Below, in pieces: positions 1,425 to 51,000 of a stretch of 64,000 nucleotides of DNA; position 1 is the stretch's first letter; each line of letters begins with the position of its first letter. The notes under the pieces were generated by a model. The model saw only the letters and a list, made by a program, of their open reading frames with translations. It was not told where the DNA came from and searched no databases. The position numbers and the translations under genes are program-made. Source of the stretch: Antedon mediterranea (taxonomy: Eukaryota; Animalia; Echinodermata); contig NC_092670.1 in the NCBI RefSeq assembly GCF_964355755.1, positions 8,670,201 to 8,734,200 on the forward strand. The letters run 5' to 3'.

Positions 1425-1437
1425 GGGCAAATGTTAA

Positions 1438-2764: not shown

Positions 2765-2770
2765 CGTTAT

Positions 2771-16812: not shown

Positions 16813-17246
16813 TTCTTAAACATTTTTTGAAAGTTGGAAATAATTGACATAATTAATCGTTTTTACTTTCATTATTTTGTTATTGCCTCTTAATCTTAAT
16901 TATATAATCACGCTGAAAGAATAACTTATGAATTGATACTAGAAGAATGGTTGTCGTAACAACTAGGCAATGATTTCGGTTTGCTCCATTTTCCATTTAA
17001 AAAATTGTTTCTCCCAGTTTTATAAAGTGTTGTACCCAACTATACCGAAACAGTGCAAAGGTGAAATACTGTCACATTTGAAACTTGAAAGCAACTTCCC
17101 AGTATTTGGTATGGAGTATCACTTTGATTTTCTAGTTTTTTACTCACCACAAAAAAAAATTAATACTGTAGTTTGGTAAAGTTATATGTACTATTTTTAT
17201 TGATAATCAAACACCACTATTAACTAATGTTGTATCTTCACAGAAA

Positions 17247-18048
17247 ATGGAGTCAAGAATACGTCATTATATGCTAAGAGAAGGAGTTAGACAAGAAATT
17301 ATAGATGCCCTTCAAGACAAAAAAGTTAGTGAATAAACATTTAAATTTAATGTGTACATTTACTATTTCCCCAGTAGTTTGTAATATATATGCCGGGTAC
17401 ATTGCCAGGTACTTTGCCTCCAATCTTTTCACTGTGTGTCCGGTTTAATATGCTGATGCTATGGTTATTTTGAATACCACATGTAGGCCTAGATGATTAC
17501 TATAATAAACTAATGACACCAAAGCCTAATCAAACTGCGCCCCTGGCAGTCTCACCTAACAATCCCTTTGAGAGTAGACATTTCAACATATGGCGCAAAC
17601 TAAATCCTATGTTCAGAAATTGTACTACCAAACATTGATTTATTCCTTCAGTCTATTCTGAGAACGGCATTGGTCAAAAAGTGAAAACGCATCTAAAATC
17701 TTGTTCACATCCATGTCCTGTCAAAAATTAAATGTGCGCTAATACTGGAAAATTCCTAAATATAATCTTCTGTGGACTAAGTTCTATCTATGTGATCAAC
17801 ATTTGTCAAAATCTGTTCTGTATTTTTGTAAGTAAATAACAGACAGACAAACAAACAGACAAATAAACCAGGGTGATGCAGTAACTTCCATTGTAAACAT
17901 GGTTATTCTTTTACAGTTGAATTCTGTTGCTCAAATCAACAAGACATCTGATGAGACTCTGTTGAAGACTTATGGACTGAAATCAATTGAAATTGAGAAA
18001 ATACGGCGTGGAGTTGAAATGTTTGAATTGCATCACAAAGAAGAAACG
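17247..18048 (+). CDS. Coding exons 1-2 (17247-17324, 17917-18048): SAM-like domain
   Basis: Spliced peptide MESRIRHYMLREGVRQEIIDALQDKK|LNSVAQINKTSDETLLKTYGLKSIEIEKIRRGVEMF has SAM-like helix spacing, including the L..YGL....KI pattern. Confidence 0.62.
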
Positions 18049-21000: not shown

Positions 21001-24000
21001 AAAATCATAAGAATTTAATTATTGAATGTCCCTGTTTTTTAGAAATATATTGGAAGATGCTATTTTTGGGAGAAAAGGATTACAAGAAATTGAAAAAATA
21101 TGTATGAATGAACCACACCTTGTGAAAACCATCGATAAGGTATTGGAAATGTATGCATTCACAATTACCAAGAACAAATTGAATTTATTAAAAATGTATG
21201 TTTTTAGCAATTTAAAAAATCCATACATTTTAAAATGTATACCAACATAAACAACATACTTATGGTACACAAAATATATATGTAACTTAATCTGTGAAGT
21301 CCAATGAACAGACAGCATTTTTACATTTTTAAAATAACAACTACTGTACCAAATACTACAATTAGACTGCTTTTAAAAAAACATGCACAGAACCAACTAG
21401 AGAAGAGAACACATTTTTAAACTGTTTTTAGTTACAAATTAGTTACAGACATTTACTTATTGGATTGGTTATTGTGTAAATGAATTTTTACATTAAATAA
21501 TTTTCATTTGGTTCATTCACTTTACTTCAGAAAAGAAAACTAAGTAAATAAATAAAATATTGTATTATAAAAATATTTTTGATTACACGCATTAATTACA
21601 TTTATATTTCGAAAAATAGAAGTTTAGTGGTGAAAATAAAAGAGAATGTAGACCTATCAAAACAGACACTTTTAATTAGTCAACTTGGTATTATCATGTG
21701 AAATCTGTATCCAAGAAAGTGTTTGCAATTCTTTATATCCTTAAACATGTAAAACCTTTATTAATTTTAGGTCAACTTTATCTTTCTCTTGTTCAACAAA
21801 TTTTGAATACCGCAGCAATTATATTGTCAAACTTGCCTACTACTACTAACTTTAAAAAATGTGGGACAAGACTTACTGTGTATGTAATGCCCATTTCTTC
21901 TCACTGTTTAAGTATGTTGATGCCACTTGGTTGGTTAAACCTTAGGTACATAATCTGAAAAGATCATCTTATAAGTGTTTAAATGGAGATTTACCCGAAT
22001 ACTGTACCATTCATATTTGAAATTTGATAATGAAAATCATGAACATTTTACCAGAAATACAGTATTGTTTCATTGTTTCACTTTGCCTCAAAACAATATA
22101 TAAAAATACAATACATGGAAAAGAAATAAGAAAAAAAAAACTAGAGACAGGATTCCTAGAAGAAATATCTTACTCTTTCTAATGATATTTAAAAAAAATT
22201 CCTGTTTGACCTTTGTTACATTTTTAGTCTTTCTTTGTTTATTCACCTTACTTTTATTACTACCATATATATTACATTTCTTTTGGAGACTCAACTTCAA
22301 GGCTCCTTTTGGTTTATTTGAGTCACCAGACATAGAACAAAGTTAAGTAAGTTAAATAAGATATGTTTTTTATGTTTTTTTGATATTTATTTGGAAAAAA
22401 ATTTAAATATTAAATTCATCATGTATTTTAAGTATCTTCTGTGGTAGTTCACACGTAGAGCCCCTTTTTTGAGGTACCAACATGTCAATTTGTTATCTAT
22501 ATTTCTGAAGTCTGAAGTCTTCTTAACAAACAGCGATCACGACATTGAATAATACATGCAATGTAATGCATTATATTGCAAAATACAGAAACAAATGTAA
22601 AGGCCAATTGTATTCATCTAGAAACCAATCTATCCCTTGATTATTATGATTCCTTGCATGATGGAGACACACCACTACATCTATATCTGATGCGTTATAA
22701 AGTTGAATTAGATAACAAACTGTCTCGTAACCAACGGTGCATCTAACTCCAAACAATGTATGTACATATAATTTTACAAATAGTTCATAAACAGTAGGCT
22801 AATATTTCTAATAGCACCCTCTCCAATTGTAAAGCATCTTGAAACCTGTTATAGGCCTAGATAATTATGATTCTTTGCCTTATGGACATACCACTACATC
22901 TATATCTAAGAAAGAGTTCTGAAGTTAAATTAGAGATAGTAAACTGTCTTATAACCAATGGTGCATCAATCACAACTCCAAACAATGTATGTACATTTAA
23001 TTTTATAAATAGTTTATTAACGGTAAGCCAACATTTTTAATTGCAATAATAGGTATTAGAAATTTCATATCAAAAAACACAGCTTGAATTGAAAATTGAT
23101 TAAATTATAAATTACAGTAAATTAATAAAAAAACAAATACATTGATTTAATTAATTAAATTTGGAACACATTAAATGATTGATTGATTGACTGAAATGTC
23201 TGAATTTCTTTATTAACCAGAGTCGCATAATACATACAATATAAAAGCAATTAAATCATGAGAAACAGTTAAATATCTTTATCAGAATGCCCTGTGAATT
23301 ACCAATTTTGTTTTAGTAAGACTTTATAGCTAAACAAATTTTATAAAGATCTGTTCATAATCCAGATGGGGTCAACATTCATGAGATATGACTTGAGTCT
23401 TTGCTTCAAAGTAATTATGTTGGTCAATATTGACAGGATTCCCAAAAAGTAAATCTAATCACTCTAGAGTAACTGGTCTCCTAATTTCACCGATTTAGAA
23501 TATAAAAGTATATATAAAATATATATATTAAAAATGTGTAAAAATACAACTTTATAATATATTATTATATTACATACAGTAAAAATACAATTTGATTTAG
23601 TTGCAAACCATTTTTAATAGAAAAATATAACGCAGAATACTATAAGCATTCATTTAAAAGGAAAGGTGTAAATATTTGTTTAAAGTAAGAAGAGACTAGA
23701 GATACATTAACCACAAACAAAGTAATGTACTATTAATTTATAGTACATCCAATGTAATGATATAACACAGTAATCAGTATTACACTATTATCATTTCTCA
23801 ATGTGAAGATACATTTTGCAAAATAAGGAAAACAAACAACTGTTATTTTAATTGATTTTATATGAATTTATGGTTTAGATGAGTATTAGAGCCTTTTTTA
23901 AATCTTAAAGTAGCAGCAATTTTATATTATATATCATGAATAATACCACCAAACTTACGAGTTAAATAATCAGTACTAGAGCCTTTATCTTAAAGTAGCA

Positions 24001-27000
24001 ACAGTAAATCAGTAGGCCTAATGATTATGATTTATTTCAGGATGGGAACACCCCACTACATCTATATCTTAGCATATTCACTACAAAGTTTGGCTATCGT
24101 CGGATGGGGGGTGGTCAATTTGAATTAGAGATACTGAACAGTCTTGTACATCCAGATGCATTAACCACATCAAACAAAGTAATGTACAATACGTTTTAAC
24201 AAAAATAATGTAAACTTTGAACATGTCTAATTTTTTTTCCTGTAAAGGCAATAAAGCATAGTGCACCAATGTAATGACATAGCATAGTATTGTGTTTCAT
24301 CTTTATTATATTACAAAGCAGGATCCACATTCATGAAATATGGCTTGGGTCTTGCTTCAAAGTAATTATGTAATTTAAAAGAGGAATACTGACAGGATTC
24401 TCAAAAAGTAAATCTAAAATCATTGCAGATGTTTGTAGATCAGTACTAAAGCCTTTTTCAAAATCTTAAAGTAGCAACATGGCAATCTTATAGCATCTAG
24501 TTGTAATCCAGTAGGCCTTAATAATTATGATAGTTCATAAACAGTAGCAAAATATTCATCCTAATAGCATCCTCTCCTCAGGGAGTGAACTATATACTTA
24601 TGTGCACGTAAGGCAACAGACCAATTGTAAAGCATTTGAAACCAGTTATAGGCCTTGATAATTATGATTCTTTGCAGGATGGAGACACACCACTACATCT
24701 ATATCTAAGGAGTTCTGAAGTTAAATTAGAGATAGTAAACTGTCTCGTAACCAGTTCATCAACCACATCGCCAAACAATGTATGTACATTTAATTTAATA
24801 CAAATAGTTCATAAACAATAGAACAATCCCTTGGTATTAGACATTTCTAGTCTAAACAACACAGCCCCCACTGATAAGAAAGTGCTTATTTTCAACAAGC
24901 TGGTGTAACACAAATAAAATCACAAAAATTATGGAACATAGGGGAATCTATAGATCGATAATTATTGGAATGTATGATCAATAGAAATGTTTTTCCTACA
25001 CCAGGCCTTCAAGGCTCTATTAGAGTCACCAGACATAAATGTATCTACATTTCTGAAGTCTGAAGTCTTCTTAAAACAAGGATCACGACATTGAATAGCA
25101 CATGCAATGTAACGCATTATATTGCACATTGTGGAAGATACATTTTCAAAATACAGAAACAAATGTAAATGCCAATTGTATTCATCTAGAAACCAATCTA
25201 TCCCTTGATAATTATGATTCCTTGCAGAATGGATACACACCACTACATCTATATCTAAGTAGGAGATCTGATGTTAAATTAGAGATAATAAACTGTCTCG
25301 TAACCAACGGTGCATCAATCACAACTCCAAACAATGTATGTATTTAATTTTACAAATAGTTTATTAACGGTAAGCCAACATTTTTAATTGCAATAATAGG
25401 TATTAGACATTCATATAAAAAAAATACAGCTTGAATTGAAAATTGATTAAATTATAAATTAAATTAATAAAATAAATTAAAAAATACATTGATTTAATTA
25501 GTTAAAATTGGATGATTGATTGATTGACTGAATTTCTTTATTAACCAGAGTCGCATAATTATCTGATCAGAATGGTCCTGTGAATTACCAATTTTGTTTT
25601 AGTAAGACTTTATAGCTAATCAAATTTGATAAACATCTGTTCATAATCCAGATGGGTCAACATTCATGAGATATGACTTGAGTCTTTGCTTCAAAGTAAT
25701 TGGTCAATAGGATAGGATTCCCAAAAAATAAAAAACTAACCACTCTAGAGTAACTGGTCTCCTAATTTCACTGATTTAGAATATAAAAATATATAGAAAA
25801 TATATATATTAATAAAAATGTGTAAAAATACAACTTTATACTATATTATATTACATATAGAAAAATACAATTTGATTTAGTTGCAAACCATTTTTAATAG
25901 AAAAATGTAACGTAGCATTCATTTAAAAGGAAAGGTGTAAATATTTTTAAAAGTAAGAAGCGACTAGAGATAAATTAACCACAAACAAAGTAATGTGCTA
26001 TTAATTTATAGTTCATCCAATGTAATGATATAACACAGTAATCAGTATTACACAATTATCATTGTACAGTGTGAAAGATACATTTTACAAAATAAAGAAA
26101 ACAAACAAACTGTTATTTTAATTGATTTGATATGAATTTATATGGTTTTTAAATTATTATTATAAGTGCAGATGTTTAGATCAATATTAGAGCCTTTTTA
26201 AAATCTTAAAGTAGCAACAATTTTATATTATCTAGTTTTAAACCAGAAGGTTAAGATAATTATGATATATACTTGAGTATAGTCCATCGTTTAGCTCATC
26301 ATCTGATAAAGTGTGGTATTAAATTTAAGAGAAACTGTCCAGTCTTGTACATCATGATGCATTAATCACATCAAAGTAATGTGCAATAAATGTTAACAAT
26401 TTTGTTTCACCTTAAACTTAATTCTTTTTTCCTATCATGCAATTAAAGTATTGTGTACCCAATGTAATGACATAGCATAGTATTGTGGTTCATCTTTATT
26501 ATATTGCAAAACGGGAAAAATACTGAACCTTTGCAATACAATAAAGAAATAAACATATGACTGATACCTTAAATTAGAGATAGTAAATGTACATTTAATT
26601 TAAAGCTCAGATACAGGCAGGAATTTTAAATATAATATCTGGTTGATTGTACATAAATCAAATATTTGTAATAGAAATCAAGATGAAAAAACATGAATTT
26701 CCCTTAAAATGGTCAAATACAAAATTTGGCAAAATTCTGCTATAAAAACCAGGAAGACTTTTTTTCAGTAGTTAGGTAGTTTTACCTAGTGTAATAACAT
26801 GTCTGATGACTCCCTAGATGGTGAAAAAAGATGGTGGATATACGGTGGATAATTTTTGCTATAGCATGGAAATAAAACTCTGAAGTTGAATAAAAATACT
26901 AGAAATGTAACATTCAAGTTATATTACCTATATTTAGTCATCTGATAACATATTTTACCACACCATTTATTTTTCATAGCTTTTTAAAAAGCCTCTCTAT

Positions 27001-30000
27001 TTACACAATTTGTGTACAAAAGAATAGAGATATTACTGTGTAATTTGAAGTATTCTCCCACTGATAAGAAAGTGCTTATTTTCAACCAGCTCGTGTAACA
27101 CAAAAAAAATCCCAAAAATTGTGAAACATAGGGGAAACTATAGGTCGATGTTTATTGGAATGATCAATAGAAATGTTTTGCCTGCACCTGGCCTTTAATA
27201 CAAATAGTTCATAAACAGTAGGCCAATATTCTAATAGCACCCTCTCATCGGGGATTAAACTTATATCCTGCCGTGCATGTAAAGGCAACAGACCAATTTT
27301 AAAGAATGAAACCAGTTATAGGCCTTGATAGTTATTATTTTTTTTTTTTTTTTTTATTCAGTATATTACACAGAGGCGCCTTACAAGATGGAACCATCTT
27401 AGCTTCAAGGCGCCTCAGATTAACAAATACAACATTTTAAAATAACTAACAGAAACATCAATTAAATCTTCCAGAATTAACAAGAAATTGTTGTACATAA
27501 TAAAATAATAAAGCATTTTCACAATTCGAAAGAAGATCGGAACCAAAAATAAAAATTTCACTTAAAAATGTAAAATTAAATGTTAAAGAAAAATCCTTGG
27601 CTAAGATATCCTCAATAATTGAGTTAGCGCTTACAAGTAGAATATCTCTTTGTGTATTATAATTAGGGCAGTAACATAAGAAATGAAGCGGATTCTCAAC
27701 ATTAAAGCCACAAGTACAATTTGGATTGTCCCGAAGTCCATGTAAGAATAAATGCGAATTGAGACAGCTGAAACCAAGTCGGATTCTAGTGTGAATTTGG
27801 TTAATCTTCTTATCACCTGTATCATAATAAGAACGTTTTTTTGTTTCAAACAAATTGGATTTCAGTAGCAATTTTTTAAACTCAACAAGAAATGAGGAAT
27901 TTTTTATTTCATTATTTAACTCATTCCAATGTGTTATAATAGATGGGACAAAAGATAAACGATATGATGTGGTCTTACAAAATGGAATTATTATATTTCG
28001 GATGTTACGCAAGTTATAAACTTCAATATTGTCAGAAAAATTAAATAAGGAGTAAAGATACACTGGTGTTAACTTATGAATAATTTTAAAAAACAGTATT
28101 AGGTTAAGAAATTGTCTACGTTTTTCCAATGATAACCAGCCTAATTCTTGTCTTAATGCATTATGACTTGTATGTTTCCACGCACCAGTACATATTCTAC
28201 CTGCAGAAATCTGGATATTTTCTAGTTCATCACTTAATTTAACTGGGATATTACACCAAACAGGAGCTGCATATTCCATTAATGGTCTAACGTGTGATAT
28301 GTAAATGTGACAGAGAGCCTGTCGAGGTAGAATATGTTTGACACGACGTAGCATATTTAAAGATAAAGACGCTTTGTTAATTACAGATTGGATATGGGAA
28401 TCCCACTTGAGTTTTGCATTAAGCATTACACCAAGATGCCTATGATCATTTACAAATTGTAGATTTACATTATTGAAATTTAAACTAACATAGTTATCTA
28501 AATGTTTACGTGTAAACAGTATAGCTTTCGTTTTGTTAGCATTGAATGTTACTTTCCATTTTTTTGCCCAATTATAAATGACATTAAGATCACCATTTAA
28601 TTTTTGTTCTGAAATATTACGATCTGTACAAATATCATATAACGAAGTATCATCTGCATATAAACTAATATTAGATTTGATATTATCAACCATATCATTT
28701 ATGAATACAATAAATAAAAATGGACCCAAAACAGATCCTTGGGGTACTCCTGCTGTAATGGTCACCCAAGGACTGGTAGTTCCTTCAATAATAACACGTT
28801 GCTCACGTGAGTTTAAGTAACTTTGGAACCATTTTAGAAGAGTGCCATTAATTCCATATTGATTTAATTTGTATATAATCCCATTATGCCAAACTTTATC
28901 GAAGGCTTTGGAAATATCCAAAAATACCGAGATTACTTCTTTCCTTAAATCTAAAGCTCTATTAAATGTATCTATAAGATAAAGAAGTTGATACGTTGTC
29001 GAGTCACCTGGTGTAAAACCAGATTGGAATTGAGTAAGAAGTTTATTATCCACAAAGTATTTATATACTATATCAAAAACTGCACGCTCAAAAATTTTTG
29101 CAAAGTTGGAAAGTATGGATATAGGGCGGTAGTTCTCAATAAGAGATTTATTGCCTTTTTTATGCAGAGGAATGACATTTGATTTTTTCCATTCCACAGG
29201 AAAATATCCTTGGCTTATGCAGAAGTTATAAAGCTTTGTCAAATGGGGTGCAATAATTTCAGCAGATTCTATTAGTATGATACTGTGAATTTCATCAGGT
29301 CCCATCGCCTTGTTTTTATCCAGCATAGTTAATAATTTCATGATCTCATCAACAGATAATTTGAGAGTTGAGAGTCTCGATGCAGTTCTATATGTGAAGT
29401 CCGAAGGAAAATCATCATGATTAGGAATAAACGATTGAGATTTAAAATAATTGTTAAACGCTTTAACTTTCTCACTATTTAAAGTTAGGACATCATCGTT
29501 TAATTTGATTGGAGGAATCTTATAATATTGTTTGGAATTACAAACTGAATTTATGGTAGACCACCAAGTTTTTGAATCACAGTTTTTATTCATTAATAAA
29601 TCAAATTGTTTATCCAAAAAAGTTTGTTTAGCTTTTCTTATTGCTTTAACAACTTTTGCGCGAATTTTCTTAAAACGTTGCATATGCGAATTTGAGTTAT
29701 TTCGAGTGGAATGGGCGCGATTTCTTTTGCGAATAAGAGTTCTAATATGCGCATTAATCCAAGGCTTGTCATTAGGACGCACAGTTATAATTTTAGATAT
29801 AATATAGTTATCAACACAATTATTAAATAAGTCAATCCAATTATGACAAACATCTTCAACCTTTGAAGATGAATAAACTTCTTCCCAATTTACAGAATTA
29901 AGAGCATTACGATATAAATTAAAATCAGTTTTTTCAAAAAGATATATTTTACGATTGTATGGCTTGTCCCGTGTGATACGAATATCAATATTTGCATATA

Positions 30001-33000
30001 CTGGACTGTGATCACAATTTAAAAGTGGGCACAATGCACCAAAATCATTAATATATACATTTTGACTAGTAACTATATGGTCAATACAAGACCGTTGGTC
30101 TTTTATACAACGTGTTGGCATATTGATGTGTTGAGTTAAACCGTTTTGTTGTAAAAATTCGTAAAATGATTTTCCAAATCTATTTGTGTTTCCATCATTG
30201 TACCAGTTGTTATTTTGAGCATTCATATCGCCCATCATTAAAGTTAAGCTGTGTCGAGACAAAACAAAGTTATTAGTACTGTTTTGAAAATAGTCAAGTA
30301 GATCCTGATCAGATTGAACATCACTTTGTGGTGGCCTATAACATACATAAGTCAAAATCGTCCAGTTTGAAACTTGTATTTCACACCTTATCACATCTGA
30401 CAAGAGATCATTGCAAATATGGGAATTAACTAAGTGTATAGAATTAGATATGTAAAAAGCACATCCGCCGCCATGGCGGTTTCTATCATTTCTAATAGGT
30501 TCTTGATAACCGTCTAGTAAAATGTCATGGTTCAAGATAGTTTGATCTAGCCATGTTTCTGTTAAAGCAATAATATCATAGTTATTTAAATTTGCTAGGT
30601 GTTGAATTTCAGCTAGTTTACCTGGAACGATTAGACTACGTATGTTAATATGGTAAACTGTAAACTGTTCCGGACCAGGATTTGGATGTATATCGCCGCA
30701 CATTAAAAGCATGCAGATTAGAACATTATTACGCCCCAAATTTATGATAAATAAATTATCCATTATCAGTAAAAAAAATAAGTAAAGTACTCACTTTAAA
30801 AACGCTAGCACATATGAGAACACTTAGCCAAACGAACATAGTAAACATTGAAATAAAAACAAGAGAACACGTTTTTGCTATCTAAAATCAACAAATAATG
30901 GTCAAATTCCGTCGGTAAGAAACGTACTGTTAATGACACCGCACAGTCTAAACGTTCTTAATGTTCAGCAATCAGTCGTTCAAAATCATTTTCATTCTTG
31001 ATATGCTTGGGTTTTTCTTCACCTTTACACAGGGCCCATATCTTGCATCTGTTAGTCCAGGCACGTTGAACTCCATCATGGTGTCTTACCTTCCAAAAGA
31101 GATTGAAATTTGCTTTTGTTAGGTCTTCCGAGATATAAACCGGCATACCCTTCAGTTTGGATTTGGCTGCAAACACATTGTTACGGGTCCTGATTGAATT
31201 GAACCGAACAATTATTGGCCTAGGCTTGTCAGTAATAGGACCGATTCGATGAGATACTTCAATATCGTCGGACTTGAAAGTGATACCCATTTTGTCGCGA
31301 ATAACCTCCGCCACCAAATCATCAGTTGACTTTGTCGAGTCCTGTAAACCGTAGAATCTAAGGTTATTACGACGTGAATATTGTTCTAAATAGTCCAATC
31401 TGGTTTCAATATTACTGATTTGCTCCTGCAGTTTATCAAATGCTTTGTTTAATGTCTCAGTAATAGAAGTAGTCAGCTCCTGAAGCAAGTCTTTCTTCAG
31501 CTTATCAACATCTAACTTCGGGGCCATGATTACACTTGCTTTTTTACAGTACCACCACTGTTTTACATATCAGGTCACAATCACAGCTGGTAATTTCGGC
31601 CAAATTTACTAATTTGCATAAGTGACGCAGATGTTTGGAAACCTTATTGAAGGATTTTGATTTGCATATGGCTAGCACAGTAATAGTTAACCTTGCAGCG
31701 CTTTCAACGGCGAGCCAATGGCAATAGATGCGGTATCATGGGGGTAAAATACTCACTGCTTATTTACACCGACAGAGCATTGACCATCATCTTTAAAAGT
31801 TTACATGATAAGTCCTAGATTCTATTTACGATGATAATGATACAATCGGGAAAAAACAAAGATAAATGTCTCTTTGAAAGGTGAAAATCGAGAGCAAAAA
31901 AGTTGTACGTGCTCACTCACCCAATGTCTCTGCTTATAGTTATTATTCTTTTCAGGATGGAGACACACCACTACATCTATATCTAAGTAGGAGATCTGAA
32001 GTTAAATTAGAGATAATAAACTGTCTCGTAACTAACGGTGCATCAATCACAACTCCAAACAATGTATGTACATTTAATTTTACAAATAGTTTAATTACAA
32101 TTGTAATTCTAAACCAATGAGGCTTAATAATTATGATTTATTTCAGGATGGAAACACCCCACTACATCTATATCTTAGCTTATTCCGATTCAGTTATTTT
32201 GGCTATAAATTTGGTTATGATCTGATGGAGGATAACAAATTTGAATTAGAGATACTGAACAGACTTGTACATCCAGATGCATTAACCACATCAAACAAAG
32301 TAATGTACAATACATTTTAACAAATAATGTAAACCTTTAACATGTCTAATTGTTTTTTCTTATCAATTTGTCATAGAATTAAAGTATTATAGTGCACCTG
32401 ATGTATTGACATAGCATAGTATTGTATTTCAACTTTATACAGAATAATACAATTTGATTTAGTTGAAAACCATTTTTAATAGAAAAATGTAATGCAGAAT
32501 ACTATTGGACATTCATTTAAAAGGAATGGCTTAAATATTTTTAAAAAGTAAGAAGATAAGACTAGAGATACATTAACCACAAACAAAATAATTTACTACT
32601 ATGGGGCCTGTGTCTGCTGCAACTGCTCAAAGTATGGTATAACTTATACCGTATTTTTATACGGTATTTTTTATACCGTATTTTTAGTACCCCGTTTCTG
32701 CTAACAATACTTCTTGGGTGGTCGTGTTAAATTTCATCCTTTTTACCCAAATTGCCATTCATTTATTTGGTCGATAATTAAAAGTCGCAATACAGGAGGT
32801 TTTACGTCTCGCTTTCAACAGCCTAGCCCTAGTTATAGGGCCCGTTTCTGCTGCCAACCCAAAATATACCGTATAAACATACCGTATATATACCGTATAT
32901 GAAATTCGTGCACCGTTTCCGCTGCACATACTTCGTGGGTGGGTTGTAAAAAAGTTGGCTTTCATTACCCAAAATGCATTTCGTGAGACGGAAGTATGGA

Positions 33001-39000: not shown

Positions 39001-42000
39001 TAAAAAGCGGGAAAAATACTGTACATTTGCAAAATACAATAAAGAAATAAGCATATGACTGATACGTTAATTATAAATTGTAGATTTAATATGAATTGAT
39101 GGTTTTTAAATAGATAATCATCATCATTGCAGATGTAGATCAGTACTAGAGCCTTTTTTAATCTTAAGTAACAACATGGCATTTTTATAGCACCTAATAA
39201 GTATGATTTATTTCAGGATGGAAACAAATTAAACCTAGTTTAAGCAACGTTGGGCTCGGTTGCATCTGGATGGAAGACCGTCTAGAAATAGCGACGGGTG
39301 CTGTATATACACCAGAGAGTGATGGTGTAATGATAATATCGGACTAGCATGTGATAGGCATGGGTTCGGGGTTATCTCTACCATACTAATTGCATCCTTA
39401 GGCAAGATGCTTTACTCTCATTGCCTCATCCTTCGGATGGGATGTAAAGCCGTTGGTCCCGTGTACTTAACAGTGCACTTTAAAGAACGTGGTACACTAT
39501 TCGAAAAGAGTAGGGACCCAGTGTGCTGATCTGGTAGGCGCTGCACTGCTGGCTGCCGTTGGTCCATGGAGGGCCCAGAATAATACATTTTTAGCTATGT
39601 TTACTGGGGCACCACCAATATTCCACACCCAATTTATTAATTAAAAATTTCAAACATTTGTATTCATGTTTCGCATTACTAAAAACTCCCTCGTTTTAAC
39701 TTGTTTTTTAGTCAGTTCTATTCTTATGAAACAAGTCTAAATCAGGAACATTTTAGTCATGAAAGTATTTTTTTTTTAAAGAAGTCTTTCTATTTATCTT
39801 TAACTATTTTTACTGCAATGTATAATGATTTATTAAATATTAAATAAGGTTTTTCAATATTATTACTGCTGTTTGTAGATCAGACATGGAGCCCTTTTTT
39901 ATTTGAAATACCAACATGCCAATCAGGGGCGGTTGCAGGACTATTTTAAAAGGGTTGCCCAAATATTCCAGGGCTGTAGACACTGAGTAATTGACCAAGC
40001 AAATTGTATTCTCTCACTGTAGTGAGCTAGCAAACAGAGGATTATAGCCTATTATTCCTCCGGTAATAAAACATACGCGACTAACAATATAAGATAACAT
40101 TTTTTTTTTCGTTCATTGCGTCACGGGGAAGTCCCCGATGAAGGACTTCTGGTACGGTAAAAATAAATAAATAGATTAGGGAAAAACACCGGCAAAACGC
40201 AATAATTATGGACAAATTGATTATTAGCCTTGGCAATATGCCTAATATTTAAAAGGAATGAATATAGGCTATATTTCGTCTGTCGATGATTTTTTTTTTG
40301 TCGCGAAGTTCATGTTTGAATGCTTGATCCATTAGAGGTAATCTGTGATGACGCTAGTAGCACTGATATGCGTGGGTAATTTATGAATGGCGTAGTAGGC
40401 TACATACACGAGCCTAGATCTGTACTGCCGTTCATCTTCAGAAGTTTATCGACCGACATTTATTTATTTTTTGTGGCAATCAAAGTTGAATATATATACT
40501 GAAATGTTGTAATTAATTAATTTGAAACGATATGAAAAGATGAGGAAATCTGTGAGAATGAGAAAAAGTCGCCCCAACCGAGACTCAAATCATATAAACA
40601 CAGCAGGCAAAGAACATTAATTCTAAACCGCCCGGTGATATACTGAAATTTAATTAATTAATTTGAAACGATAAAGGTGAGGAAATCTGTGAGAATGAGA
40701 AAAAGTCCCCCCAACCGAGACTCAAACTCGGACCATCTGCTTGATATGCAGTTGCCCTAACCATTAGACCACTGGGGCTTTCATGGTATTGTTCAAACTC
40801 AATTGGATAGTGACTCTTTAACATTCTCGGCGTGGTACAGCGGAACAGCACTAGTCCTCAGTTGTACGCACGCGCAACAGAGATCAAATTGATACACCCT
40901 CATCTTTCAGTATTTTTATTCACGAGGCGGGATCTCCGAAGAGATATTTTTATATATATAAACACAGCAGGCAAAGAACATTAATTCTAAACTACCCGGT
41001 GATATACTGAAATTTAATTAATTAATTTGAAACGATAAAGATGAGGAAATCTGTGAGAATGAGAAAAAGTCGCCCCAACCGAGACTCGAACTCGGACCAT
41101 CTGCTTGATATGCAGTTGCCCTAACAATTAGACCACTGGGGCTTTCATGGTATTGTTCAAACTCGATTGGATAGTGACTCTTTAACATTCTCGGCGTGGT
41201 ACGGTGGAACAGCACTAGTCCTCAGTTGTACGCATGCGCAACAGAGATCAAATTGATACACCCTCATCTTTCAGTATTTTTATTCACGAGACGGGATCTC
41301 CGAAGAGATACTTTTATATATATAAACACAGCAGGCAAAGAAAATTAATTCTAAACCGCCCGGTGATATACTGAAATTTAATTAATTAATTAACTATATA
41401 TATTTCTCATGTGTAGTAGAGCGTTTCTTTGATTTGAATAGTTTGTATTATAACACAAGTTCATTTTGGATTTTAAGTAAATTACCAATGGTTTACTCAA
41501 AGTCATGTAGCTAATCCCTCATTATTCAATAAAAATGTTATTACTATACTACATTGTTGAAAAATAGATTGCGTGATATGAAAATGGATTGATAGTAAAA
41601 CGTAACAAACATACGTTTTTGTCTGGTTATTAGGTATTCATGCATTCATGAAGCGGAGGATTATTTTTGTAGCGTTCCATTTAAATTAAATTTTGCTACA
41701 AAGAAATATTTTGCTTTTGAAGGTTGTTAAATTTGTTGGCGCCAGCATTACTTCTTTTACCAATTTTACCAATTAATCTAACATCAAAACATTCAACAAT
41801 GATACTTTATGACTACGCCTATCAAGTTCCGGCTCCGGACCCCCACCTCCCCGAAATGTTAAAGGTTCCCTTTTTTAGAGAACACACTAACTACATTTTT
41901 TTTTTTCGTCAATGCGGTACTTCTGGTACGGTAATAATAAAATACTATCAATTAATGTAAATTAATTATTATTATCAAATAATGATTTAAAAAAGTTACA

Positions 42001-45000
42001 CAAAAAATATGAAGATGCTGCTATAAGTATTGAGGAAAACGTTAAATTGTATTATTTTGAATTAAATGCTAAATTAGTCAGCAGTTAATTAAAACCACAA
42101 TTTTCAAAATTCATTTTCATTTATCCACTATAAACTGTACAATAAATAATAAATATAAAACAAAGAAATTAATTATAGGAAATTTGCAGAAAGAACGGAA
42201 AACAAAACTATATGCAAAATTATGATTTGGCCTTAAATTGGAAAAAACGCAATAATTATGCAGGCCCGTAGCCAGGGGGGTTTTTATGGTTCGGGCGAAC
42301 CCCCCTTAACCAACTGCGAACCCCCATCCCCGAAATGCCCAATACCTCACCCTCATCTCCAAAAATCCTCCAAATACGTGCCCCACAGTACAAAAAGTTG
42401 TTTGTAAATTGAAAAATTCGTAAACTTGTTCGTGAACCTTCTTCTCTGTATGAGCGTCAACTAGTGATACGTGTCTGTAAATTTCTAAAAGCTGCAAATG
42501 AATTGCCGATTTTAACCTGAAAAATAAATGTTTGGTCCCTGCATGTAACATGATATTGACGCGTCTCATAGCGAGCTGGCGCACGAACGATTCGTACAAA
42601 GGACACCGCCAGACAACTGCGTACCTATAATTGTTTAGATCACTGGCAGTCAGGCAGCATGCATAAAGTATATAGCCTTCCGACGTACATCAGTATTTAT
42701 GTGCGACTATGAAGTATAATGTATCATAGAGGATTATATAGTGAATATTAATATTTTACACTATAATATCTATGGTATCAAGTACTGTAGTTCACATTAT
42801 GGCATCCGATTATTTTTTTCTAGACCACCAGCCGATACGTACTAAAATGTATCAATATCACCTTTTACATATTTATATTCCTCAACAAATTGCTGTCAAT
42901 AAATATTATAGATAGAGCTAGCAAATAGCATTTGCCTTCACCCAGTGTGCTTTTTTCGGGGCTGCTCCTAGATATACGTTCGCATTGAACTTGAACGCAA
43001 AACAAAATACGGAGTAAATGATCAAACAATCGGCGGTTCCGCACAGAGCACGCACATCTAACATACGGCAACAAATAGTTATCGTCATTTAAATTATCGA
43101 CGTGTTTGAGGAGGAGGAAAAAGTACGATCTTTTTGCTCATTGGTTATATAGCATGCTGCACGAGAGTGTCTTTTCCGGCCATCTAGGGGTGTCATTTAA
43201 CAAAATTCGCTTCGCATCAGGCTGGGGGGAGGGGGGGGGGGTGTTTGACCCAAATATTTAATGTCCGAACCCCCCCTTGACAGATCCTGGCTATGGCCCT
43301 GATTATGAACAAATTGACGACCCAATATGACAGGTTTTCTCGAGCACTGTGTGTGTTGGCCTCCTTTCGTACCTCTCATCAGGAGAGATATACATCTCCC
43401 TGCTCTCATGACGCGCGTACCACAAGCAACTAGTCAATCAGAAAGTCATTCTGTGCATGCTCAGAAACGTATCTACACTTATCTGTGAGTGGTATAGTAG
43501 GCCTATTGGTGACTGCTGTGCATTTACTAAAATTTCAATATTAATAATAACCAACGGTGCATCAACCACATCTCAAAACAATGTAGCCTATGTATATTCA
43601 ATTTTACAAGTAGTTCATAAACAGTAGGCCAATATTGAAACATAAACAGTAGGCCAATATTGAAACCAATTATATCTCTTGATAATTATGATTCTTTGCA
43701 GGATAAAGACACACCACTACATCTATATCTAAGAAGGAGTTCTGAAGTTAAATTAGAGATAGTAAACTGTCTCGTAACCAACGGTGCATCAACCACATCT
43801 CAAAACAATGTATGTATATTCAATTTTACAAGTAGTTCATAAACAGTAGGCCAATATTGAAACCAATTATATCTCTTGATAATTATGATTCTTTGCAGGA
43901 TAAAGACACACCACTACATCTATATCTAAGAAGGAGTTCTGAAGTTAAATTAGAGATAGTAAACTGTCTCATAACCAGTGCATCAATCACATCTCCAAAC
44001 AAGGTATGTACATTTAATTTTACAAATAGTTCATAAACAGTAGGACAATATTCCTCTGTATGTATATTTAATTTTATAGATGATCTATAAACTGTACGTC
44101 AATACTACTAGCAACAGTAGATATTAGACATTTCAAGTCAAATAACACAGCAGTAATTAGGGAAATTGAGGCCTAGACCTACTCATTTGATTCAGATCAA
44201 AACAGTAACATTTATTTGTTTTATATATTAAATATTATATATATTTGGATTTTATAAACATATCTCCTGTTAGTGTTAATGGCGCTAATGTAGTTTCGTA
44301 CCCACCTCTTAAAATGACTCAAAATTGTTTTAATAATTCATCCAACCTACTCATGGGTTGTCGACAACATTTTGCAAGCATAACATGGTAAAAAATCGAT
44401 AATTTTTTATTTATAATTATTTTTAATGAATTAAAGTATTGTGTACCGAATGTAATGACATAAACATATTGTATTTCATATTTTTAATTATAAATTGTAG
44501 ATAATATGGATTGATGGTTTTAAAATAAATAATCATATGCAGATGTCTCTAGACTAGTAATAGAGCCTTTTTTAAATCTTAAAGTAACAAAATGTCTATT
44601 TTATAGCATGTCATTCTAAACTCGTAGGTTTTAATGATTATGATTTATTTCAGGATGGAAACACCCCACTACATCTATATCTTAGCTTATTCACTACAAA
44701 GTTTGGCTATGATCTGATGGAGGGTGATAGATTGGAATTAGAGATACTGAACAGTCTTGTACATCCAGATGCATTAACCAAATCAAACAAAGTAAGGTAA
44801 AATTTAAATATAATTTAAACCTAAAACCTGTCTTTTTTTCTATCATGAAATAAACATATAATGTATTCAGTGTATTGCATTATTATCATTTTATTGCAAA
44901 TTGTGAAAGATACATTTTATTATATTACGATATTCTTATTATGAATTGTGATTTAATATTTATTGAATTACAGCTTTTTAGTAATAATATAATATTCTAC

Positions 45001-48000
45001 CTATTCAGATTATAAACATTTGGAAAGTATAATATTTCATAAAGAAGTTATTTAATTAAACTGATTAATCATTGTGTATCAACCAGAAATTCATTTTACT
45101 CTACCAGTTTTTATTTTTATTATTGTTATTATTATATCATATTATTATCGTTGTTGATTCATAGACTTTAGAACAGGCGTGACATGTACTGATATATTTT
45201 TTATGATTAGTTTGTTTAGGTTTGTATAACATATCAACTAAATTAATTATTTCTTAACAATTAAATCACATTTGTTTATACTAGATGTTTGTTTATAAAG
45301 GCAACACAATTACTAAAGTTTCAATATTTAATAATTGAGTAAACAATTTTTTTTAAATCTTAAAATCATGCATCATCACATCACATGTAGTATTGGATTA
45401 TTGTCATTATATTACAAGTAAAAGCCAATTATATTTCATCTAGTAGCCCTTGATAATTATGATTCTTTGCAGAATGGAAACACACCACTACATCTATATC
45501 TGAGATGGAGATCTGAAGTTAAATTAGAGATAGTAAACTACCTCATAACCAACGGTGCATCAACCACATCTCAAAACAATGTATGTACATTTAATTTTAC
45601 AAATAGTTCATAAACAGTAGACCAATATTCCTAAGAACCCTCTCCTCAGGTAGTGAACTTAAATCCTTCCACACACATAAGGCAACAGGTCAATTGTAAA
45701 GCATCTTGAAACAAGTTATAGACCTTGAAAATTATGATTCTTTGCAGGATGGAGACACACCACTACATAAATATCTGAGAAAGAGGTCTGGAGTTAAATT
45801 CGAGATAGTAAACTGTCTCTTAACCAACGGTGCATCAACCACATCTCTAAACAATGTATGTATATTCAATTGCTGTACTGTACGTCAATACTACTAGCAA
45901 CAGTAGTTATTAGACATTTCAAGTCTAAATATCACAGCAGTAATTAGGGAAATTGAAGCACTTGATGGATTGAATTTTTTTTGTTAACCAGAGTCATACA
46001 CCTATATGAAAACAATAAAAGCAATTGAAATTATGTAAAATCACAATTTTATACTATATTATATTACATACATACGGTAATAATACAATTTGATTTAGTT
46101 GCAAACCATTTTTAATAGACTAGGGGTCAGTCTTTACCGAAAACAACCACAAACAACCGAAAACAACCGTAAACAACCCGAAAACAAACCGAAAAGAAAA
46201 TAAAAAATCTATACCGAAAACAATTTTGTATAATATTTTTGTTAATGTCGCCCTCTATTGATGGGTGTTTCTAAAGCTAAGACCATACAGAAAGAAAACC
46301 GCGCGCACAAAATCCAAGGAAGACCCTACAAAATAGTAGTGTGCACAAAATACAACTCAAAATCCTACAAATTCAATGATATACACAGTAGACTACATTT
46401 ACTTACAAAATCTATAAACACATTTCGTTTTTAGTCTTTATATTTTCCAAAACAAAGCATGATTTTACCTAACTTTGCGTGATTAAGGATAAAAACGTTA
46501 TTTACTCGACTGCGGTAATTTTACTGAATAGATTTTATTGTGAATCCTTTATCGTGAGCTTGTTTTAAGTATACTTCATAGTCCTTAATATTATCAATAT
46601 TCTTTAAATATTCTTTAAAATATCATTTTGTATTATCTTTGAAAATCTATAATTAAATTGATCATGATTAACCATAGTCAATTTACTTTCTATACTATGG
46701 ATTAACGTATTCACAATTATTGTGAAGAGTAAATGCGTTGGTTTCTGGATCAAAAATCGACAGAATAAAATTAAAATATTTTTATAGATTCTCTAGGTAA
46801 ATGCAATGTTATCATTGATTGATTGATTGTACGATTTTTAGTTGTATTTTGGGCACGTACTACCATTCCGTAGGGTCTTCCTTGGCTTTTACACACGCGG
46901 TCTTCTCTCTGTCATGGTCTTAGCTCTAGAAACACCCATCAGTAAAAGGCGACCTTAAAAAGTCATATACAAATTTGTTTTCGGTATTTAGACTAATTTA
47001 TTTTGTTTTCGGTTTGTTTTCGGTTGTTTTTGGCTGTTTATAGTTGTTTTCGGTTGTTTATGGTTATTTTCTGTTGTTTTTGGTAATTAGACTGACCGGA
47101 TACTAGGGGTGCATTAACCACAAAGTAATGTACTGTAAATAGTGCATCCAATGTTATACAAAAAATGAGTGTAATATGGTACAAATAATGGCATGAGGGG
47201 ACTGATGAAAGGTAATATTTCAATGAGGGGAATCTAAATAGATTCCTGTCATTTGAATCAGATTGAATGAAGGGTAGCTTTATTTGTTTTATATATTAAA
47301 TATGTATTTGGATTTTATAAACATACCTCCTGTTAGTGTTAATGGCGCTAATGTAGTTTCGTACCCACCCCTTAAAATGACTCAAAATTGTTTTAATAAT
47401 TCATCCAACCCACTCATGGGTTGTCCACAACATCCTGCAAGCATACATTTTAATTTTTGTTAAATAATTTTTTATTTATAAATATTTTTAATTAATTAAA
47501 GTAAATGTGTAATAAATTTTGACAAATAATTTTTTCACCTTAAACTTGTCTAATTCTTTTTTTCCTATCAAGTATTGTGTACCCAATGTAATGACATAAA
47601 CATGGGTATTTCATATTTTATTTATAACTTGTAGATTTAATATGGATTGATGGTTTTTAAATAAATAATCATCATCATTGCAGATGTTTGTAGTAATAGA
47701 ACCTTTTTTTAAATCTTAAAGTTGCAACATGTCTATTTTATAGCATGTCATTCTAAACTCGTAGGTTTTAATTATTATGATTTATTTCAGGATGGAAACA
47801 CCCCACTACATCTATATCTTAGCTTATTCACTACAAAGTTTGGCTATGATCGGATGAGGATTGGTAAATTGGAATTAGAGATACTGAACAGACTTGTGCA
47901 TCCAGATGCATTAACCACATCAAACAAAGTAAGGTACAATTTAAAAATAATTTAAACCTAAAACTTGTCTTTTTTTCTATCATGAAATAAACATATAATG

Positions 48001-51000
48001 TATTCATTGTACAGTACTGCATTATTATCATTTTATTGCAAATTGTGAAAGATACATTTTATTATATTACGATATTCTTATTATGAATTGTGATTTAATA
48101 TTTATTGAATTAATACAGCTTTTTAATAATAATAATATAATATTCTACCTTTTCAGATTATAAACATTTGGAAAGTATAATATTTCATAAAGAAATTATT
48201 TAATTAAACTGATTAATCGTTGTGTATCAACCAAAATTCATTTTACTCTACCGGTTTTTATTTTTATCATATTATTATTGTTGTTGATATATATAGATAC
48301 TCATATACTTTAGAACAAACGTGATATATCTTTAATACAATTATTTTGATTTGGGTTGGTATAGCATATCAACTAAATCAATTATGTCTTAACACTGACA
48401 GTTAAAGCACATTTGTTCATAGATGGGGAAGACGCCGGTGTCTATTTTAAAAGATAATGATCAGATTGACCTAGAAGTAAAACACACGATATTGAAGATA
48501 TTTGACAGTAAGTTAATGTTTTAAAATTAATTTAATCCCCTGAATCCAAACCTGTTTTAATTGTTAGCTTTAGTTTTAAATTTAAAACAAGATTCTTTAC
48601 TTGATTTTGTACAAAAACTAAGTTTTTCACTTCTTCAATTCATGGAATTTTAAAAGTTTTGAGAATACATCGATTTCTGCTGTGTTTAAATTCGTGTCTA
48701 AGCCTGTTCAGCTTACTAGAAGGTGCCAGAAGAGACACGTGAAAATCAATCTAAAACAAGAGATAATAACGACCAACATTGATTTCAATGTCTTGAGCGA
48801 CATCAGCCTCACTACTTATTACTGTACTGTATTATTGTAATCAGTCATGTAATTTGTGTGTACACGAAACGATGAGACAGTGATAATAAGTATCTTGCCT
48901 AGTAAGTAATATGGCGCTAACAGGTTTTGAGTACTGTACGATACTTTACTTTTATGCCATAATCATGCTGATGAATTTGAACATCATTTACTGTATTTTT
49001 ATTGCTTTTATTTGATTTCTGTAATCACTGGATTGTATTTTCAATGTATGGAAATTGTAAATTGAACAAAATGCTCTACTTGATTTAATAGGCAGAAACC
49101 TAAATTTTATTTAGGAGTTTTAGAAAATTTATGAAATAAAATAAAGAAAATTATACTTGGCACCTGAATATATTTATTATTGTTACAGTAGCTAAAAAGT
49201 CTTCAGTGGGTCAAGCAGCAGCAGCAAAAGGTACAACTGGAAAAGAATTTGAAAAAGAACCAACATCTGCCACCACCACAACTGCATTACTGTCAACGTC
49301 TAAAAAAATGTTAACATGTAAGCCTTCTTCAAAATGGATGTAAAATATTCTAATTTTGAATAGTACAAACAAAATGCGACCAAAGATTATGATTATACAA
49401 TTTAAAACAACACATACAAATATTATGCAAACAATGAATGTCTTATAAGTTAGTGAGAATATTCCATGGGTTGAAATATTGACTGCCATATTTAACAATG
49501 CAGAACTGAATTAAATAGAACATTTAATCGCTCAACTTATCCTGATTTTTTCACCATTTGTATTCAGTATGTAAGCTTTATGCAATTTGGCCTGTATTAT
49601 ATGTCACTACTTTAAAGCACAATAAAATCTGTCTATAGTCTGTATTGCAGTTAAATCAGTATTATAACAATCATTTCAATGTCTTATTAAGTAGGATATC
49701 TATATAAATACAGTGTAATTGTAATCGTTATCAAGTTTCTATCTCACTTTCTATTGACAGCAAAAACAAATTAATTACATAAAGCAATAATACTCCTTTA
49801 CTTTTCAGTTAATGTCACAGTTCATCTCAAAAGCATTAAAGTTCCACCACATCCACAGTATGTTGTAGACATGTTTGAAGACATTTTTGGTGGAAAAAAT
49901 GTTATACATGCTTTGGGGTCCTGAGAAAAAATCCTCTACAGTACTTGATTAGACAGAAATTGAAATTTTATCTAGGAATTTTTGAAAATTCCTGAAATAC
50001 AAAATAAAGAAAATTACACTGACATTACACATTTGTATATTATTGTTACAGTAGCTCAGAAGTCTGAACTGGATCCAGCAGCAGCAGTAGGTACAACTGG
50101 AAAAGAATCTCAAAAAGAACCAACATCAATGTCTGCAACTACCACAACCGCAGGATTGTCAACGTCTAAAAAAATGTTAACATGTAAGCCTTCTTCAAAG
50201 TGGAAGTAAAATATTCTAATTTTGAATAGTACAAAAAAAATGCGACCAAAGATTATGATTATACAATTTAAAACAGCACATATAAATATTATGCCCTATT
50301 TAACAATGCGGAACTGAATTAAATAGAACTGTATTGCAGTTAAATCATGTCTTATTAAGTAGGAAATCTATACAAACAGTGTGTAATTGTTATCATCAAG
50401 TTTCTTTCTCAATCGATTTCTATTGACAGCGAAAACAAATTACTTACTTAAAAACGATAATTTTTCTTTATTTTTCAGTTAATGTCACAGTTCATCTCAA
50501 AAGCATTAAAGGTCCACCACATCCACAGTATGTTGTAGACATGTTTGAGGACATTTTTGGTGGAAAAAATGTTATACATGCTAAAGATCTGCCAAAACAA
50601 AGTGACAAAGTTAGAGAACTTGTACAATTAATAAGAGACATTGGTTTTACCATTAACGCCCTTGAGCGGAATTGTATGAAACTTCATCTTGATACGTTAC
50701 ATCCAAGGGCTGTATTTCTTCTAAAGTGCTTGTACACTAGTGGAAGGCTTCTAAGGTTTTTAAGTCAAATATTAGTTTCTGAAGAACATCGGTCTAAATT
50801 TGTTGCTCAATGGAATTTGCTAATTGATCAACTGCAATTTGAAGAAGTTTTCAAGGGTGTGAAACTAAAAGGTAAGAAATATTACTTGAAATTTCTTATT
50901 TCCTAGTAAACAATAATTAAAATACCGTTGTAAATGCATACATACACATATCAAGCACAAAATCAACAAAGAGCAGTCAGTGTGAATAAAAGAATTTATT

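Follow-up and report, generated by a model that had tools for sequence, protein, structure and literature searches.

The locus analysed here raises the question whether a gene built from near-identical ankyrin exons can provide a feather star with a diversified immune sensor, and whether this diversity would arise in the germline, by splicing or in somatic cells. It is still an open question how invertebrate deuterostomes come by varied recognition repertoires in the absence of V(D)J recombination, and this locus is a testable case: a single gene, with defined cassettes and evidence of spliced RNA in two organisms. A preliminary description of the window (i.e. the whole stretch of 64,000 nucleotides of Antedon mediterranea that was analysed) had proposed the array as a candidate diversifying immune receptor, by analogy with Dscam splicing and with the exon-shuffled LRR/TPR arrays of Ectocarpus.

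The gene spans positions 17247 to 52137 of the window. The array had been described as ending at 48507, but this position is the end of the exon encoding the C-terminal capping repeat (C-cap). The longest predicted form is a protein of 1338 aa, with a single open frame across 28 exons joined in silico. N-terminal exons come first, followed by an N-terminal capping repeat (N-cap), the array and the C-cap; after these lie linkers, then a domain that is likely TRADD-N-like, a spacer rich in proline and, at the end, a predicted tandem death-effector domain (DED). The predicted location of the protein is cytosolic. The RefSeq model begins 3' of a LINE, and the five 5' exons and cassettes B1, A1 and A2 are predictions. 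The start of the window falls within a 54-kb segmental duplicate. The features outside the array, and the LINE, are:

17244..17324, + strand, predicted first coding exon, ATG at 17247, canonical sites, in frame with the model
17917..18048, + strand, predicted helix-hairpin-helix/SAM-like exon, a lead only (Atlas 0.82-0.88 to HhH and RNA-pol alpha-CTD clusters, below 0.9)
18348..18440, + strand, predicted linker exon, phase 0-0
20890..20930, + strand, predicted exon, phase 0-2
21043..21139, + strand, N-cap exon, ending in phase 0, 48% identity to P0212 residues 5-35
27340..31935, - strand, LINE retrotransposon (RVT_1, Exo_endo_phos), inserted just before the A3 acceptor
48423..48507, + strand, C-cap exon, phase 0-1, 59% identity to P0212 residues 246-272
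49189..49317, + strand, Thr/Ala-rich linker exon 1, joint 48507-49189, linker common to P0002
49810..49923, + strand, truncated copy of the first part of the TRADD-N-like exon
50052..50183, + strand, Thr/Ala-rich linker exon 2
50479..50871, + strand, likely TRADD-N-like domain exon (Atlas; PF20694 in homologues; 67% identity to P0002)
51022..51354, + strand, proline-rich exon with 8-residue tandem repeats
51614..52137, + strand, terminal exon, predicted tandem DED (AlphaFold and Foldseek)

A Pfam search with exon 17917..18048 gave no match, and an N-terminal SAM domain, sought with Pfam and Atlas among others, was not confirmed. The residues of P0212 that match the N-cap sit before the first repeat of that protein (tblastn E 2.5e-4 within the window). 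The LINE has an open ORF1 (203 aa), an ORF2 of 1110 aa from stop to stop, a poly(A) and a 12-bp target-site duplication. Many further insertions were observed in the locus, and the adjoining Mab-21 copy is frameshifted.

Within the array we found all 17 intact one-repeat exons that had been reported, 11 of type A and 6 of type B. Each measures 102-153 bp and a multiple of 3, has an AG acceptor and a GT donor, and is phase 0-0, a phase set by the unique exons on either side of the array (21043-21139 and 48423-48507). The cassettes share near-identical flanks. Blast matches to the A and B references in the window were confined to 22635-47945 on the + strand, and no inverted cassettes were found in the window. 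The five dead cassettes of the preliminary description were recovered as well (22660, 22879, about 26289, 39217 and 43547), together with three further scars, i.e. eight dead or empty sites:

22660..22757, + strand, dead type A cassette, acceptor lost, frameshifts
22879..22986, + strand, dead type A cassette, acceptor lost
24041..24178, + strand, cassette B1
24520..24547, + strand, empty site in which the acceptor-side and downstream flanks are fused, without an exon
24678..24779, + strand, cassette A1
25228..25335, + strand, cassette A2
26255..26375, + strand, degraded type B cassette, 77.5% match to the B reference over 26289-26375, flank motif at 26255
26571..26601, + strand, type A remnant fused to donor flank
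27190..27221, + strand, second empty site, downstream flank without exon
31956..32063, + strand, cassette A3
32147..32299, + strand, cassette B2, longest insert
36216..36350, + strand, cassette B3
36629..36733, + strand, cassette A4, Pfam Ank match
36903..37007, + strand, cassette A5, identical to A4
37177..37284, + strand, cassette A6
37489..37593, + strand, cassette A7, weaker donor (GTATTT), omitted by the RefSeq model
38759..38866, + strand, cassette B4, shortest insert
39217..39226, + strand, type B 5' stub of 9 nt, cut off by unrelated sequence
43547..43591, + strand, type A 3' stub
43702..43809, + strand, cassette A8, RNA joints
43899..44003, + strand, cassette A9, RNA joints
44654..44791, + strand, cassette B5, RNA joints
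45473..45580, + strand, cassette A10, RNA joints
45748..45855, + strand, cassette A11, A11-like end joined to the C-cap in RNA run X8
47791..47928, + strand, cassette B6, RNA joints

Cassettes have turned over recently through duplication and loss. Both type A exons tested matched Pfam Ank (E<=5e-4), and the sole type B exon tested gave a weak match (E 0.11). The predicted protein of the window (P0001) matched PF00023 with E 1.3e-44, and its best PDB matches were ankyrins and DARPins. A KH-domain Pfam match on P0001 was discarded, as it lay below the cut-off and fell on ankyrin helices.

Downstream of the array, exon 50479..50871 likely encodes a TRADD-N-like domain. It reached 0.94 in Atlas (219 of 256 features; 15 of 30 Atlas matches), and three of its nine homologues matched PF20694, below the cut-off. 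Against PDB sequences, the exon gave a single unrelated match (E 1.3). The terminal exon is a predicted tandem DED: its AlphaFold model had a pLDDT of 96, and all 24 Foldseek rows listed were DED structures of caspase-8, cFLIP or vFLIP (best E 3.3e-3, TM 0.5-0.7). PF01335 was present in 37 of the 63 homologues scanned, out of 90 matches, and an HMM of the DED alignment found none among PDB sequences. The window protein itself had no Pfam match for TRADD-N or DED. P0001 also gave no match to a NACHT or NB-ARC NTPase, so that it was not classed as an NLR (STAND). Roc/COR had no Pfam match on P0001, and tblastn with P0033 and P0212 found no Roc-COR exon between 48300 and 52200, which places the gene outside the ROCO class.

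These two proteins, P0033 and P0212, are A. mediterranea RefSeq models of crinoid ankyrin-Roc-COR-DED proteins. The ankyrin searches, which scored 7980 candidates each, returned two Antedon paralogues amid generic ankyrins among the candidates scored. P0033 and P0212 agree with the window gene in both caps (N-cap and C-cap), in the repeat consensus and in the variable positions, and P0033 also shares its proline-rich spacer and C-terminal DED. However, their C-cap is followed by Roc(-COR), whereas the window gene has a linker-TRADD-N tail related to P0002, an Ig-transmembrane protein. In the tandem-DED tree, the window gene grouped with P0122 and P0002 (100/100), and P0033, a long branch, fell elsewhere; identity was 53% to P0002 versus 24% to P0033. 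Because caps and repeats match the ankyrin-Roc-COR-DED proteins, Roc-COR is missing and the tail groups with the Ig-transmembrane family, the gene is, as judged from sequence comparison, likely a chimera of an ankyrin module and the tail of another receptor family. The module with both caps would derive from the crinoid ankyrin-Roc-COR-DED family, the fusion point would be the phase-1 intron after the C-cap, and the linker-TRADD-N-DED tail would come from the Ig-transmembrane family. This suggests that a variable sensor module can swap signalling tails via one intron, with a GTPase switch lost and TRADD-N gained. A metagenome scan match (L001) covered only 21 nt and was attributed to chance.

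Two sequencing runs from two organisms, X8 (guessed to be RNA) and X9 (unlabelled), were taken as RNA because their contigs show joints at exon boundaries. The joint evidence comprises 15 of the 26 joints listed for these runs, and contig depth was not used. Among these 15 joints, X8 had GT..AG joins at the predicted sites 45855-48423 and 48507-49189, i.e. at both edges of the C-cap exon, and five joins in X8 and X9 connected a cassette end to a cassette start; three more such joins were tabulated. An X8 contig starts to match at 51614, the acceptor of the terminal exon, and an X9 contig stops at donor 50871; the C-cap exon is not covered in X9. Most joint sides were short (21-44 nt), at 88% likeness. 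Exon gaps listed in the contigs amount to net 3 nt (43731, 43739, 43781, and 43744 with 43747 at equal depth). Some joined variants lie outside the 17 cassettes of the window: a DGN start with the type A Thr codon, YGD and NGD starts, and A-type ends in AAA. They could stem from a paralogue beyond the window, because the window begins inside the segmental duplicate. In a broader contig set (four runs, 20 kb), in which transposon contigs dominate, none of the 15 joints considered out of 518 was a splice joint. Given that X8 and X9 are probably RNA, the array is transcribed and spliced at the predicted sites. The Dscam analogy is not supported, because cassettes join one another in both runs.

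The same joints bear on the idea that diversity comes mainly from combinatorial exon skipping, with a somatic repertoire in each animal from two alleles. Every cassette is phase 0-0, and up to nine ROCO splice forms are given for Ectocarpus in the available passages of Teng et al. 2024 (PMC11378527). Furthermore, in X8 an A11-like end is joined directly to the C-cap (45855 to 48423), bypassing B6, and a new A-type end has two partners there, a B start in one join and a DGD start in another. The bypass, however, equally fits an allele without B6, and the C-cap had a single upstream partner in X8 among the 15 of 26 joints. Moreover, in the window A8 and A10 are identical over their final 30 nt, so that two partners for a single end do not require skipping, and the 5' 30 nt of the cassettes are so similar that short contigs cannot tell paths apart. 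We therefore regard skipping as unlikely to be the main source, and combinatorial splicing as a possible added one.

Variation among cassettes was placed on the ankyrin fold by sequence alignment, as a single-sequence AlphaFold model of P0001 reached a pLDDT of only 37. The claim that variation clusters right after helix 1 holds for type B, where 27 of the 29 nonsynonymous variants lie within the insert that follows helix 1. In type A, only 5 of 29 fall in the three codons after helix 1, and variation spans the whole predicted binding face, beta-turn included. The six face positions, consensus positions 2, 3, 5, 13, 14 and 33, were fixed after the variant positions had been seen, counts are small and p values are uncorrected. 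Type A face codons had 11 nonsynonymous (N) and no synonymous (S) changes, i.e. 0.74 per N site versus 0.26 per S site (p 0.022, count-based), and the N rate of 0.74 compares with 0.27 outside the face (p 0.011). At these six positions, entropy was elevated in type A (p 4e-4), P0033 (p 0.018) and P0212 (p 0.003), and type B showed no excess there (p 0.31). The type B inserts are hypervariable, but their silent sites also change fast (0.55 vs 0.51), and the excess of N over S is not significant (p 0.10). Hence, of the dN/dS signal sought, a modest dN>dS confined to type A face codons was obtained. The variation falls at residues that engineers randomise in DARPins. Tests for recombination among repeats gave suggestive values (p 0.06-0.10): 23 of 55 site pairs were incompatible, a value matched by 42 of 486 clonal simulations.

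Alternatively, selection could be relaxed in a young chimera restricted to this lineage, whose array arose as a side effect of local tandem duplication; the variation would then be mostly neutral, and the protein a scaffold or in decay. The type A framework looks neutral, with N and S rates (0.27 and 0.29) at non-face codons as in relaxed DNA, and the eight dead or empty sites, the LINE adjoining the A3 acceptor with the many other insertions, the broken duplicate exon at 49810 and the frameshifted Mab-21 neighbour fit the same picture. In contrast, purifying selection acts on the type B framework (2 N, 5 S; p 0.012), type A face codons show excess change, the same positions vary in two paralogues, the frame is open over 28 exons, and spliced contigs occur in two organisms. 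We consider neutrality quite improbable, even a little more so than skipping. The germline locus of VLRs is incomplete. Somatic DNA-level rearrangement in immune cells as in VLRs, or one-at-a-time choice as in Dscam, is very improbable: near-identical flanks and clean empty sites would be recombination substrates, and the idea was raised for Ectocarpus by Zambounis et al. 2012 (in the part available, PMC3341825), but cassettes join one another in both runs, contrary to a one-at-a-time choice, the germline frame is already complete, and Teng et al. state that somatic recombinants have not been reported in algae (PMC11378527).

We thus favour, as the fairly probable reading, that a transcribed gene with end-to-end ankyrin exons, a likely TRADD-N and a predicted tandem DED serves inside the cell as an immune sensor whose diversity arises chiefly in the germline. 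The preliminary proposal of a diversifying immune receptor is in part borne out by the transcription and splicing of the array, the enrichment of variation at the binding face, the turnover of cassettes and the predicted immune and death-signalling domains at the end of the protein, and is not borne out in its Dscam analogy. End-to-end cassettes would build a predicted DARPin-like binding surface. Because all cassettes are phase 0-0 within near-identical flanks, repeats can be exchanged without loss of frame; unequal crossing-over or conversion would add, drop and swap repeats, so that alleles may differ in number, order and surface. Putative ligand binding might act via TRADD-N on the tandem DED, which would hypothetically recruit FADD/caspase-8-type partners. 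A bolder and rather doubtful extension is a portable natural DARPin library in feather stars, with the capped array moved between tails (Roc-COR-DED elsewhere, TRADD-N-tandem-DED in the window gene) and many surfaces, in each animal via skipping and in each population via alleles; if true, it would be an intracellular anticipatory receptor system in a deuterostome.

Our literature search, with most subscription papers beyond reach, returned no description of such ankyrin exon arrays in echinoderms. Dscam, which PMC11378527 describes briefly, has tandem duplicated exons with dead copies as well, but the window cassettes are joined together in RNA contigs rather than used one per transcript, and the protein is predicted to be cytosolic. 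A further comparison is with the LRR/TPR receptors of Ectocarpus. In the parts of the sources available (PMC3341825, PMC11378527), each of their exons encodes one repeat in a constant phase, the introns of the repeat domain contain dead exons, and the exons turn over rapidly; change at the binding face is diversifying, and an immune role has been proposed. The window array likewise has one repeat per same-phase exon (17 of 17), inactivated exons confined to the repeat domain and rapid turnover, and its module would derive from a ROCO family. It differs in being an animal gene with ankyrin instead of LRR/TPR repeats, in phase 0 instead of phase 2, without inverted cassettes or Roc-COR, and with a TRADD-N-like and tandem DED end.

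Fungal NLRs, in the passages of Dyrka et al. 2014 consulted (PMC4986451), carry ankyrin repeats that are almost identical, and their selected sites lie on the inner helix and the beta-hairpin. They share such repeats with the window gene, and would also share repeat-number polymorphism and death-type signalling. Unlike them, the window gene has no NACHT/NB-ARC, each repeat is its own exon, and type B repeats bear long variable inserts after helix 1. Finally, lineage-specific TRADD-N proteins of marine invertebrates combine a constant TRADD-N and DED unit with a variable partner region, according to the available passages of Kaur et al. 2021 (PMC8195603). These passages report ankyrin partners in cnidarians, oyster and sponge, and expansions in echinoderms, and they do not mention exon cassettes. 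The Death-like/TRADD-N unit there lies N-terminal to the ankyrins, the reverse of the order in the window gene, and Kaur et al. propose that TRADD-N-linked ankyrins recognise invader molecules.

In total, a motif and blast scan of the window recovered 17 intact cassette exons of 102-153 bp, each with AG/GT sites, and its matches were confined to the plus strand at 22635-47945. These are the 11 type A and 6 type B exons of the preliminary description (type B with an insert after helix 1), whose dead cassettes were likewise confirmed in five copies. Three additional scars were identified: what is left of a type A cassette (26571) and, near 24520 and 27195, two empty sites at which the flanks abut directly, the exon being absent. 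Cassettes A4 and A5 are identical and belong to a 274-bp tandem unit, and hence represent a recent duplication. An apparently young LINE was inserted 8 bases before the end of the A3 acceptor tract. At 15150-16820, 19040-20440, 32600-35430 and 46136-47074 the sequence also contains MITE-like elements; they are palindromic and nested, carry short repeats internally, and in several cases lie within array introns.

Genes and mobile elements around and within the array
3011-5062, minus strand: Mab-21/cGAS-like gene, first copy, open, with Mab-21 Pfam matches
7600-10200, plus strand: broken DNA-transposon-like element (DUF7869)
12696-14141, plus strand: truncated RTE/CR1-type reverse transcriptase (RVT_1)
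27340-31935, minus strand: LINE, both ORF1 and ORF2 open, flanked by a target-site duplication of 12 bp
56541-58607, minus strand: Mab-21/cGAS-like gene, second copy, broken across three frames

The ankyrin gene sits between the two copies of a tandem segmental duplication (1-5296 and 54009-58839; 97.3% and 95.6%), ~54 kb apart. An insertion at 58840-63400, in which a satellite of roughly 80 bp forms two inverted blocks, and the roughly 57-bp tandem repeat that follows it (63400-64000) interrupt the second Mab-21 copy on its 5' side.

When the 17 cassettes were joined to the five exons before and the six exons after them, a single 1338-aa open frame resulted, and its splice sites were canonical. 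Exon 50479 showed a 100% match to P0001, the Antedon mediterranea RefSeq model at this locus (XP_071943401.1), which begins 3' of the LINE, joins 13 cassettes and leaves out A7; the LINE before A3 may explain that start. The exons bordering the array resemble the N-cap (48%) and C-cap (59%) of the ankyrin-Roc paralogue P0212. Because of these matches, we regard the array as a properly capped ankyrin domain and the RefSeq model as probably incomplete on the 5' side. The most upstream exons are predicted, and an HhH/SAM-like fold there serves as a lead only.

Downstream of the array, exon 50479 resembled TRADD-like N-terminal domains (Atlas similarity score 0.94), and PF20694 was matched over this stretch by three of nine homologues, all below its cut-off. 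The terminal exon was folded with a pLDDT of 96 from a 40-sequence alignment. In Foldseek, all 24 rows listed were caspase-8, cFLIP or vFLIP tandem DEDs, none with an E value as low as 0.001, and Pfam DED was found in 37 of the 63 homologues scanned (from 90 matches). A local duplication (49068-49912 and 49928-50582) covers the linker exon and the start of the TRADD-N-like exon; the first linker is in use, as a spliced joint indicates, and the first TRADD-N copy is truncated. The predicted product would be a cytosolic sensor with a variable ankyrin face, in which the TRADD-N-type domain is a putative switch towards the tandem DED, which would recruit FADD/caspase-8-type partners. We consider it fairly probable that this putative sensor is diversified chiefly in the germline, where symmetric exons would be gained, lost and exchanged.

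Part of the locus occurred in ten sequencing runs, with RNA on record for none of them. One contig of X8 (organism A, a sample distinct from that of the best-matching DNA run) begins matching at acceptor 51614, and one of X9 (organism B) stops at donor 50871. We surveyed joints across 43600-49340 in both runs at 88% likeness. Among the 15 of 26 joints listed, X8 contained the GT..AG joins 45855-48423 and 48507-49189, and in five joins (X8, two; X9, three) the end of a cassette was linked to the start of a cassette; a separate link table gave three further cassette-to-cassette links. Transcripts thus contain consecutive cassettes. X8 also includes contigs covering introns, and therefore holds pre-mRNA or DNA. 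Several joined starts and ends, most joint sides being short, match none of the 17 window cassettes, and the exon gaps listed were a net three bases. These sequences suggest that arrays vary between animals, although a paralogue beyond the window could also supply the unmatched variants. Combinatorial skipping of cassettes is a rather improbable main source of diversity; the join 45855-48423 bypasses B6, which fits exon skipping or a shorter allele.

Variation was compared at positions 2, 3, 5, 13, 14 and 33 of a designed-ankyrin library, which we take to be the binding face. Alignment to a DARPin sets the register, and the six positions vary there. In a related library (PMC4308713), the randomised positions are 2, 3, 5, 10, 13 and 33, which belong to the beta-turn and helix 1. 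Across 10 distinct type A cassettes, the six positions averaged 1.20 bits versus 0.31 elsewhere (p = 4e-4), and repeats of P0212 and of P0033, another ankyrin-Roc paralogue, were likewise more variable there (p = 0.003 and 0.018, respectively). In contrast, type B showed no excess variability at these positions (p = 0.31). Clustering of variants in the loop, as proposed earlier, was strong in type B and only partial in type A. In variant counts among cassettes, type A face codons carried 11 nonsynonymous and no synonymous variants (p = 0.022 against the silent rate), and the type B insert evolved rapidly at both kinds of site (27 and 7; nonsynonymous excess p = 0.10). The type B framework was under purifying selection (2 and 5; p = 0.012). 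Four-gamete tests (31 of 78 pairs, p = 0.06-0.10; in a second set 23 of 55 pairs, a value reached in 42 of 486 clonal simulations) suggest exchange between cassettes, but were not significant. Neutral cassette turnover is somewhat less likely still than skipping; purifying selection was not evident at other type A codons (18 and 7), and the type A face excess speaks against mostly neutral variation. Somatic rearrangement or one-of-N splicing is very improbable, and the Dscam-like choice of one exon is opposed by the cassette-to-cassette joins in X8 and X9.

The gene appears to combine two Antedon families. The closest ankyrin arrays found were those of the Antedon models P0033 and P0212 (42% identical), with the order ankyrin-Roc-COR-Pro-rich-DED and an ankyrin-Roc fragment, respectively. 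In both, the C-cap is directly followed by Roc, whereas in the window gene it is followed by a Thr/Ala linker, a TRADD-N-like domain and a tandem DED. This tail is shared with the Antedon Ig-transmembrane protein P0002 (67% identity for the TRADD-N-like domain and 53% for the tandem DED). In a DED tree of 46 of 89 stretches (the window, its best 44 matches and P0033), the window clustered with P0122 and P0002 at 100/100, and P0033 fell elsewhere on a long branch. We infer a chimera; the caps, rather than a rooted test, would indicate the direction of its formation. P0002 (XP_071958835.1) has Ig domains flanking a hydrophobic segment and three linker-Ig repeats before the tail, and may be a fused gene model.

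In its working, the gene would resemble brown-algal exon-shuffled ROCO/NB-ARC receptors and those fungal NLRs whose ankyrin repeats are conserved. It belongs to neither group, as it lacks Roc-COR and NACHT. It fits the TRADD-N/DED expansions described for marine invertebrates, but with the domain order reversed.
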